Positions 36,641-39,165 of a DNA stretch of 64,000 bases are shown piece after piece. Every line of letters begins with the position of its first letter. The first letter of the stretch is position 1. The position numbers were made by a program, and so were the translations under genes. Source of the DNA: Mustelus asterias (Eukaryota); assembly GCF_964213995.1 (NCBI RefSeq), contig NC_135804.1, positions 67,580,001 to 67,644,000 of the forward strand. The letters run 5' to 3'. Under the pieces are notes generated by a model that saw only the letters and a list, made by a program, of their open reading frames with translations, was not told the origin of the DNA and made no database searches.

Positions 36641-37333
36641 TAAATCCATTCTAATATTTTTCCAACAACTGAAGTGAAGTTTCCTGCAATATTCCCTCTG
36701 CTCTAAACAAGGATGCCAAATTGGCAGTTTTCTAATCCTTTGGCACATTTCCAGAATCCAAGGATCTTAGAATCTTAGATGTTTGTAAAATGACTACTAA
36801 TACATCCATGATTTCTGTAGCTACCGGCTTTAAGATCCTGGCATGTAAGCTATCTGTTCAGGGGTCGCTGTCAGCCTTTAAGCTCATTAGTTTGCTTAAA
36901 ACTAATTCGCTAGTGATGGTGACTCTATATATTTCCTCCCCTGTATTTATTTTATTCTTTCTGGAATGCTTGTAGTATCCTCCACAATCAACACCAAGCA
37001 AAATATTTATTTAACTCCTCAGCCTTTCTCCTCCCTGATTACTTTTTTAGTCCATCTTTGCTGCATTCTGAATCTATAACATTCTTCTGGCCTACCATTA
37101 AGCTTTGCCATCTTATATTTTTCTGTTTGCAATTTAATACCATCCTTAACTTCCTTAGTTATCCATATTAGGTTCTTCCTCCCTTAAGTGTCTTTCCTCC
37201 TCATTGGGATGACATTTGACAAGTTATCTTTGTAAATGTCTGTCAAAGCTCATCTATTGTCTTACCTAGTAATCTATATGACCAGTCTGCTTTGGCAAAT
37301 TCTATCGAGCTACCTTCGTAATTCCTCTTTCTT

Positions 37334-37706
37334 ATCGCTTCTCGGCCTTTTGGCTAAGATCAAGTGTAGTATCCGGCATCGCTTCTCGGCCTTTTGGCTA
37401 AGATCAAGTGTAGTATGGATCGCCTGCACTTGGTTGAGGTCATTAGGTTACGCTGAGGCTTCATATGTTTCATATGAAGCAATTTTTAAAAGCGGCATCT
37501 CGGCCTTTTGGCTAAGATGCAAATGAGCTCAAGTCTTGGAGGAGGATCCTCCCCCTTCTCCAATCAGCTTGACTCATGTAGATCAGGCCCAGGACAGGGT
37601 GGTTTTGGTCTCCCGTCCTGTCTTGTCAGCCTGGATCTGAAATGTCTCAACTTGTTGAGACTCTGAATTGGATTTGATTTGATTGAATTGGAAAAGTATA
37701 AAAAAA
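37334..37706 (+). mobile_element. U2 snRNA-headed SINE-like element with three U2 5' modules, a structured body and an A-rich tail
   Basis: U2 nt 1-40 at 37334-37373, U2 nt 1-39 at 37378-37416, partial U2 stem-loop I at ~37498-37518; ends GAAAAGTATAAAAAAA. Confidence 0.7.
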
Positions 37707-38209
37707 GTTCAACACTGATATTTTAGTCCCAATTTCCTCACACTCAAGCTGAAAACTAAATTATACTGCGATCACCTAAACATTCCTTAACTTTGAGATA
37801 ATTTATTAAACCCACCTCATTACATACACAATATCAGATCCAAGATAGCCTGATCTCAAGTTGGTTCCATAACATTTTGCTCCAAGAAATCATCCCGCAT
37901 GCACTCCATAAATTCATTATCTTGGCTACCATCTCCAGTTTGATTAGCCCAATCTATATGAAAATTGATTAATACAGTGCTCTTTTTAGATGTACTTGTT
38001 CTTCTCTGAAACACTTTCATGCAGTGAGGTTACTTTTCAGGGCCTATACAATCCTTCTACCATTCCCTTCCTCTGGTATTTGACACTTCTACCCAAATCA
38101 ACTCCACATATGAATTTAGATTGTCCCTCAGAACTGTACGCATTTACTGTCATAGTAGCAGAGCTACACCACCACCTTTTCTTTTCCACCTGTCCTTCCC
38201 AAAAGTCAA

Positions 38210-39165
38210 TGATTTTCGATAAGATGTCTCATCAAAGTTTACTGGGCAAAATAACAGCTCATGGTGTAGGGGTAACATATTAGCATGTATAGGAGATTGG
38301 TTTGCTAACAAAAAACAGAGTAGAAATAAATGGACCATTTACACATTTGTAAACTGTAACTCGTAGACTGCCACAGGGATCGGTCCTGAAACCTCAATTA
38401 TTTACAATCTACATCAATGACTTGAATGAATAAACCAAATATATAAGTAGTTCAGGTGCTGGTTGCATGGATATAGCAGCAGAAAGTGGGTTGTCAAGAG
38501 CACAAAAAAGTCTACGAAAGGATTTAGACAAATTTTGAGAGTGAGTTAAATTGGCAGTTGGAGTATCATGTTACACAATATAAATTGTCCACTTTTGGAT
38601 TGAAGAATAAAAAAACATATTATTTGAATGTAGAGAGTGCAGAATCTAATGGTACAGATGGACCTGGGTCTGCTGCTACATTAATCACAAAATCTTGGTG
38701 CTGCAGCAAGTGATTAGGCAGACAATTAAATGTTGATGTTTATTGTAAGGTTAATTAAGTATAAAGGAGGGAATTGTTGCTGCACAGGGCTCTACAGACT
38801 GGAAATGATATGCTCAGTTTCGATCTAATTTAAGAAAGGAAATAATTGCAATCGAAGAATTTCATAGAAGGTTCGATTGACTGATTCCTGGGGTGAAATG
38901 GTTCTCTTATGAGAAAAGATGGAGCAGGTTGGGCAATTATCTACTGGAGCTCAAAAGAATGAGATGGGATATTATTGAAGCATGTAAGAGTCCGAGGGGA
39001 CTTGACAGGGTAGATCGTGAGAAGGTGTTTTCTCCCCTCTGGGTAGTCTAGAACTAGGGGAATCATTTGATAAAATTGGTGTTTTTGATTTAAGACATGA
39101 GATGTCGAGACTTTTGGTAGAGTAAAATTGAGAGGCTGAATGGCCTTTTCCTGTTGTTAATTATT
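38210..39165 (+). mobile_element. Highly decayed CR1 RT/3' fragment
   Basis: Remnants of DKV.H, PQGSVL and YEKRWSRLG motifs. Confidence 0.65.

Follow-up and report, generated by a model that had tools for sequence, protein, structure and literature searches.

A young U2-headed SINE family, probably mobilised by a Keno-type LINE and transcribed from copies in U2 genes

The element at 37334-37706 of the window, which is the whole stretch of 64,000 nucleotides that was analysed, belongs to a U2-headed retroposon family with a non-coding unit of ~330 nt and A tails, in which U2 nt 1-39 is followed by an antisense arm, then by a U2 stem-loop I inside the body and a tail rich in hairpins. It is near certain that this U2-headed SINE is a real, young family. 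Judging from the sequence evidence collected here, the retroposon is probably mobilised by a Keno-type LINE and transcribed from a few copies that lie in U2 genes behind the U2 promoter.

Layout of the element, its family and its predicted fold

The window copy is oriented on the plus strand and opens with an extra U2 head (U2 nt 1-40, 37334-37373), which lies outside the family unit. It is followed by a linker (37373-37377) with the sequence found at -5 to -1 in the major U2 genes, those of C24; the first C of the linker doubles as U2 nt 40. CGGC separates the extra head from the family head (U2 nt 1-39, 37378-37416), which ends at the Keno cut site (nt 38|39). The U2 genes of this genome form tandem arrays on C24 and score about 190 bits with Rfam; their first 39-40 bases recur without change at 37334 and 37378, and the linker has the same sequence as the five bases that precede their start. 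Both heads, read as U2 in the preliminary description, are identical to the genome's own U2 genes. The linker, head and body start of the window copy have only four exact matches genome-wide.

The body, also on the plus strand, begins with the antisense arm (37424-37449), which matches the reverse complement of U2 nt ~11-36 imperfectly and includes G-U pairs, and continues with a perfect hairpin (37458-37480) that is shorter in older subfamilies. The internal U2 stem-loop I module (37495-37518) corresponds to U2 nt 4-27 with one substitution (23 of 24 positions identical) and is fixed in the family; one U2-embedded SINE copy has it deleted. Then follow a stem-loop with a variable tip (37523-37577), a long imperfect stem (37580-37638), also with a variable tip and with one pair altered on both sides in five copies, a nearly invariant 3′ hairpin (37644-37661) and the terminal AAAGTAT motif with the A tail (37692-37706). 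This motif is common to the 3′ end of the partner LINE; the tail counts seven A, the last two of which may be target bases. The hairpins, long stem, third module and A tail of the preliminary description are all borne out. Of its three U2 modules, only the one at 37334-37373 is an extra head; the other two are fixed in the family.

Rfam recognises the second head and body of the window copy as U2 at 49 bits (cut-off, 46 bits); the body contains no U2 sequence past nt 40, and U2 upstream sequence found no match at the window locus or at the other dispersed SINE loci compared. A candidate Sm site, suggested by the Rfam alignment in the AATTTTTAAAAG stretch, does not have the G found after the U-run in real U2 genes.

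The insertion lies in the decayed ORF of an old LINE-like repeat (37090-37998, minus strand), which is bluntly split between 37333 and 37705. The site, described earlier as TT|AA-like, reads CTT|AAG; its flanks join in frame on the minus strand as the decayed ORF, and target-site duplication is absent at this copy. Judging from its motifs, the host repeat may be a CR1; a nucleotide search of the fetched loci gave one weak match. A second decayed LINE RT fragment, read by eye, is located at 38250-38680 of the window (plus strand).

Within the 3.68 Gb assembly, a 24-mer of the tail has 4,736 exact matches and a 38-mer spanning the head/body junction has 252, the reversed controls giving 0 in both cases. 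A search with the body returned 1,823 candidates, and the 40 that were scored are 99-100% identical; the multicopy nature supposed for the body is thereby confirmed. A target-site duplication of at least 8 nt is observed in 61 of 118 distinct copies vs 2 of 118 in a shifted control. Among 34 clear cases, hand-picked from this list of 118, the base before the cut is T or C in 33. Overall, SINE copies are 79-100% alike and the subfamilies keep one common plan. Their heads start anywhere from U2 nt 1 to 19, nt 1 being the commonest start (25 of 93 heads) and the others being truncated by up to 18 nt. The tail is also covered by 88 and 55 contigs in two of four runs from other organisms (X2 and X5), whose RNA origin is only guessed. 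These contigs carry the tail with substitutions of their own, and the family therefore extends beyond this genome; they indicate the presence of related sequence, not transcription.

Several arrangements were observed alongside the typical copies. Head-to-head inverted SINE pairs or inverted heads occur at L007, L063 and L159, and a short divergent U2-headed element at L233 (971-1136), with only part of the tail in common, may represent a sister family of greater age. The idea of an ancestral right-hand monomer that once stood alone, prompted by L011, found no support, as the short copies start at varied points, like 5′ truncations. At L002, L019, L080, L095, L122 and L163, SINE and LINE copies lie at, or immediately beside, one A-rich position in a partly palindromic repeat of very high copy number; this repeat is also present in the U2 spacer and occurs many times within the window. 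Given the A-richness of the site and the abundance of the repeat, a second preferred target there was not counted as evidence.

Folding of the 373 nt of the window copy gives z = -9.2 (0 of 100 shuffles as good), a score of which the repeated heads supply part. Over its first 33 nt, the body is imperfectly complementary to the head in antiparallel orientation, and most of the deviations still allow G-U pairing. In the consensus fold, obtained from 44 of 106 near-full copies picked for diversity, head nt 18-36 pairs with the antisense arm (17 pairs, 98% of cells paired), and this stretch is paired in 42 of the 44 copies folded singly. The antisense arm is predicted to cover most of the branch-point-pairing bases of the head. 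Two-sided change affects 2 of the 65 predicted pairs, so covariation is weak, with little of it in the head-arm pairs; the covariation score beats 500 of 500 shuffles in a control that ignores relatedness. Among the base changes, A>G exceeds T>C about threefold per site (82 on 58 sites vs 44 on 90, counts that are not independent among related copies), and A>G changes are clustered in six copies, T>C changes in none. Such an excess would fit editing of a double-stranded RNA prior to its reverse transcription. Copies at L029, L080 and L159 (948-1280), in which the only clustered changes are A>G (up to 11), look like edited RNA returned to DNA in this way.

U2 genes, extra heads and the source of the transcript

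Five SINE tails are directly followed by U2 nt 39 onward, the downstream sequence that the preliminary description had suggested looking for. Five of at least 4,736 tails at the U2 site correspond to about 0.1%, far above chance for one site, and about 99.9% of the SINE copies sit away from U2 sites. The family is thus dispersed, with a strong but rare preference for U2; with this correction, the earlier proposal that the element targets U2 genes is supported.

Three SINE copies in the assembly are located directly behind U2 upstream DNA (C14:62.23 Mb, C21:28.06 Mb and C24:43.06 Mb) and involve two U2 gene types; copies preceded by a U2 promoter region, as envisaged earlier, thus exist. At the C24 locus, U2 upstream DNA is followed by U2 nt 1-39, the SINE, a decayed duplication, a truncated LINE, a duplication, a second SINE and U2 nt 39-191. 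At C14 and C21, the SINEs follow 245-250 bp of upstream DNA of a second U2 gene type, an intact copy of which scores 175 bits. This type (L099-L101; C14:62.23 Mb, C21:28.06 Mb) is 85-90% identical to the major one, with other upstream DNA and a unit of ~450 bp, and most of the copies seen are split at nt 39 by a SINE or LINE. The two kinds of upstream DNA have a short common motif ending 44-46 nt before the start, the distance at which the PSE is expected upstream of a U2 start. The promoter-adjacent copies differ from the window copy at 3, 18 and 62 places. None of these three is a U2-embedded source identical to the youngest subfamily, that of the window copy, which occurs in no major-type U2 gene of the assembly.

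Two further features of the U2 arrays were recorded. U2 genes of a 1,833-bp array at L056 (2125-2331 and 3974-4180) have a short internal duplication near nt 18-37, possibly the scars of aborted insertions, and Gypsy-like LTR retrotransposon protease and RT ORFs are found beside the C24 U2 array at L102 (7557-9615).

About 30 dispersed SINE copies carry an extra U2 head, which indicates that a head is gained in a minority of rounds only and not at each round, as had been supposed. Double heads were sought by exact-match searches that together reach to about U2 nt 100. Two consecutive heads were found in 40 matches, in 28 of which the first head ends at nt 36-55 (one of these is a LINE and two come from one local array). 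Among the other 12, six end at nt 28, five at nt 35 (one local array) and one at nt 33, and at least four of the six ending at nt 28 are insertions into the head of an older copy. Extending the search to about nt 77-84 gave 24 matches: in 17, all of them LINE copies of the C24 arrays, the head ends at nt 58, and in the remaining seven at nt 54-57. No extra head ending at nt 59-100 was found by these exact searches, the last of which covered about nt 71-100. If an element inserts at 38|39, duplicates 0-20 bp and is afterwards transcribed at that locus from U2 +1, the resulting extra heads are expected to end at nt 38-58. The lack of ends past nt 58 could instead reflect the structure of the U2 snRNP limiting template jumps.

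The linkers point in the same direction as the head ends. In four dispersed double-headed copies the linker equals bases that lie just ahead of a U2 gene start. The window copy and L095 have 4-5 nt from the major type, whereas L198 and L229 have 7 nt from the second one. A copy inside a C14 U2 gene has a longer linker, of about 30 nt (32 nt) of U2 upstream DNA. At L089, U2 nt 33-53 precedes the SINE and nt 39-58 follows it, all within an outer 13-bp duplication. Extra heads ending at nt 36-57, together with U2 upstream linkers, are the expected footprint of passage through U2 genes. A lone CGGC before a single head (L096) may be due to chance, as a rough estimate predicts near 0.6 such cases, and weight was placed on the double-headed copies. 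A different arrangement is seen at L170 (1494-1713), where six tandem copies of U2 nt 2-35 + TGG stand ahead of one SINE.

These footprints in the DNA suggest that the window copy may be a record of two passages through U2 genes. In the first, a transcript beginning at about -4/-5 of one U2 gene would have inserted at nt 39/40 of another; in the second, a transcript of that U2 locus would have inserted at the window site. More generally, it is likely that the SINE is transcribed from its U2-embedded copies.

A possible but rather unlikely alternative retains the same family and the same LINE and derives the RNA from scattered copies via flanking promoters, the extra heads being template jumps onto free U2 snRNA and the copies in U2 genes dead ends. 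It agrees with the dispersal of nearly all copies and with the fact that no U2-gene copy is identical to the youngest subfamily; the double-head junctions, with short overlaps or a few untemplated bases, also speak for it, and the accessible text of Kojima 2015 (PMC4494074) accounts for the head additions of SINEU-2 by template jumps. However, the heads stop at U2 +1 and not in varied flanks, and the extra heads stop by nt 58. The U2 upstream linkers, moreover, need templates from U2 loci, or an upstream-started U2 RNA and two jumps, and L089 has U2 on both sides of the SINE. Transcription from copies embedded in U2 genes is consequently preferred to transcription from scattered copies.

The partner LINE and the proposed cycle

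The LINE found in the U2 arrays has two ORFs, ORF1 with a CCHC domain and ORF2 with APE, RT and zf-RVT domains (Pfam). Its protein shares 40% identity with one named TX1 149 kDa, and the highest-identity named match of ORF2 is in a ray (81% over 30% of the query), a match that underlies the probable assignment of the host to the elasmobranchs; none of the sequences returned is labelled Keno. The LINE inserts at the U2 nt 37-39 site, as Keno does, and its copies begin with U2 nt 1-33, 5-35 or 9-33. An ORF2 of 1135 aa is present in four of five fetched LINE loci; one full-length copy has intact ORFs of 353 and 1135 aa behind a head of U2 nt 9-33, and one full-length copy lies directly behind U2 upstream DNA. 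The LINE is widely dispersed, with 908 candidates and duplication lengths similar to those of the SINE. In the 13 non-array copies read, U2 nt 39+ follows the LINE in none, so it is not strictly U2-specific.

At L051 (1475-7123; C24:44.81-44.94 Mb), about 16 copies of an 8,035-bp tandem unit consist of an intact U2 gene and a full Keno-type LINE, whose ORF2 is broken by an abundant ~380-bp SINE that we take to be HE1-like. This unit is a dead LINE amplified along with the U2 array.

It is very likely that the SINE is moved by this Keno-type Tx1 LINE. The order at L065 is SINE, LINE end, SINE, with one and the same duplication between the elements and on both outer sides, four times in all, and a same-strand SINE abuts the LINE at three of five loci chosen by protein alone and at one of 13 chosen by the 3′ end. 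The comparison of the two 3′ ends, proposed in the preliminary description, yielded little in common beyond the 7-nt AAAGTAT motif before the A tail: their local alignment is not above shuffles, and in the anchored 3′ alignment with the motif left out, 52 of 2000 shuffles are as good.

This weak 3′ homology would favour movement of the SINE mainly by another poly(A)-priming LINE (other Tx1 or L1), the Keno-type LINE making rare U2 insertions only. Other Tx1-like fragments do exist in the genome, at 66-89% identity to the Keno-type LINE, which is the LINE family that the survey covered. Such a carrier is nevertheless improbable: away from U2 genes the SINE and the Keno-type LINE stack at the same sites with the same duplication, and the latter is itself dispersed, with similar duplication lengths and intact ORFs. 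The element can hardly be a one-off U2-LINE chimera, the truncated 3′ end of a LINE or a functional variant of a U2 gene, even though the Rfam score lies just over the cut-off, given the thousands of copies of fixed structure, the far higher score of real U2 genes and a body devoid of U2 beyond nt 40. An origin of the body from the 3′ end of a LINE was also tried and dropped, as its local match to the partner LINE is not significant and none of 30 tails sampled by position is preceded by LINE sequence; a same-strand neighbour SINE copy is present at 12 of these 30.

With the Keno-type LINE as partner and U2 genes as the site of transcription, the following cycle can be proposed. The LINE endonuclease would have 38|39 as its cut site in U2 genes and would cut at Y|A, with loose specificity, in other DNA. 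A SINE arriving at a U2 gene would either fuse seamlessly, its head being identical to the first 39 nt of the gene, or land behind U2 nt 1-(39 to 58) with a duplication. RNA polymerase II would then start at U2 +1, occasionally a few bases upstream, and read through the SINE, giving single-headed or double-headed daughters. By folding over the head, the antisense arm would prevent the RNA from serving as a splicing decoy. The fullest form of this reading, held with somewhat more belief than doubt, is that of an active SINE-LINE pair that breeds in U2 genes: both partners start with the first 33-39 bases of U2, insertion at 38|39 would rebuild a promoter-driven source, the arm would hide the head and the double heads would represent dated records of passage.

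If true, this would directly answer how promoter-less snRNA-headed SINEs are transcribed, and would represent an independent origin of such SINEs outside crocodilians, extending them to a second vertebrate lineage. It would also provide a case of a transposon dependent on the very spliceosomal genes that it damages, and would yield thousands of young presence/absence markers. The C14, C21 and C24 loci, together with the intact partner LINE, make the question of transcription directly testable.

Comparison with known systems

Among the systems that use the same target, Keno has a 3′ flank in U2 that runs from nt 39 onward, according to the available portion of PMC6136364. Keno is known here second-hand, from the accessible text of PMC4494074, PMC4640811 and PMC6136364; the partner LINE resembles it in its APE endonuclease and RT and then in the same U2 3′ target, and differs in being also dispersed, in having a U2 head of its own and in carrying a SINE, while the window element is non-autonomous. 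Utopia, whose downstream flank starts from U2 nt 39 in the part of PMC4640811 consulted, uses the same U2 site; unlike the APE-type partner described here, it is autonomous with a restriction-like endonuclease. As far as the cited portion of PMC4494074 goes, R2 also relies on the promoter of its target gene through 28S co-transcription, but is an autonomous pol I passenger. The human U2/U6-L1 template-switch chimeras cited in the same text likewise have an snRNA 5′ piece fused to a retroposon; in contrast to those one-off events, the head described here is fixed in thousands of copies.

The family does not correspond to a classical pol III SINE with a tRNA, 7SL or 5S head, as Rfam matches U2 only and runs of 4-5 T are present in the head and body. 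Nor is the window copy a functional U2 gene, with 49 vs about 190 bits and no match to U2 upstream DNA at its locus.

The closest likeness is to SINEU-1, -2 and -3, the snRNA-headed SINEs of crocodilians (Kojima 2015, PMC4494074). The accessible text of that paper reports no SINEU outside crocodilians and calls SINEU transcription an open question. Likewise, no snRNA-headed SINE outside crocodilians was found in the accessible parts of the literature searched, which included PMC5753468, PMC5786205, PMC5381603, PMC4758252 and PMC5499810, with Repbase Reports, Dfam and subscription journals outside its scope.

The differences concern the host, crocodilian for SINEU and probably elasmobranch here, and the target, as the SINEU partner prefers Mariner-N4 whereas the partner here targets U2 genes. 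In addition, the present family has copies in U2 genes behind the promoter, unreported in the available text of PMC4494074, an arm antisense to the head, and very young copies (100% identical). By host or target, the window family is therefore not a named crocodilian SINEU. As for the likenesses, both are short (<500 bp) and non-coding, with a U2-derived head, a poly(A) tail and internal oligo-T. In both, snRNA pieces have been added repeatedly at the 5′ end, insertions stand in tandem around a single duplication, and targets are shared with a Tx1 LINE that has a U2 head as well. The window family thus has every structural feature of the SINEU class that was tested, a likeness that concerns the structural plan.
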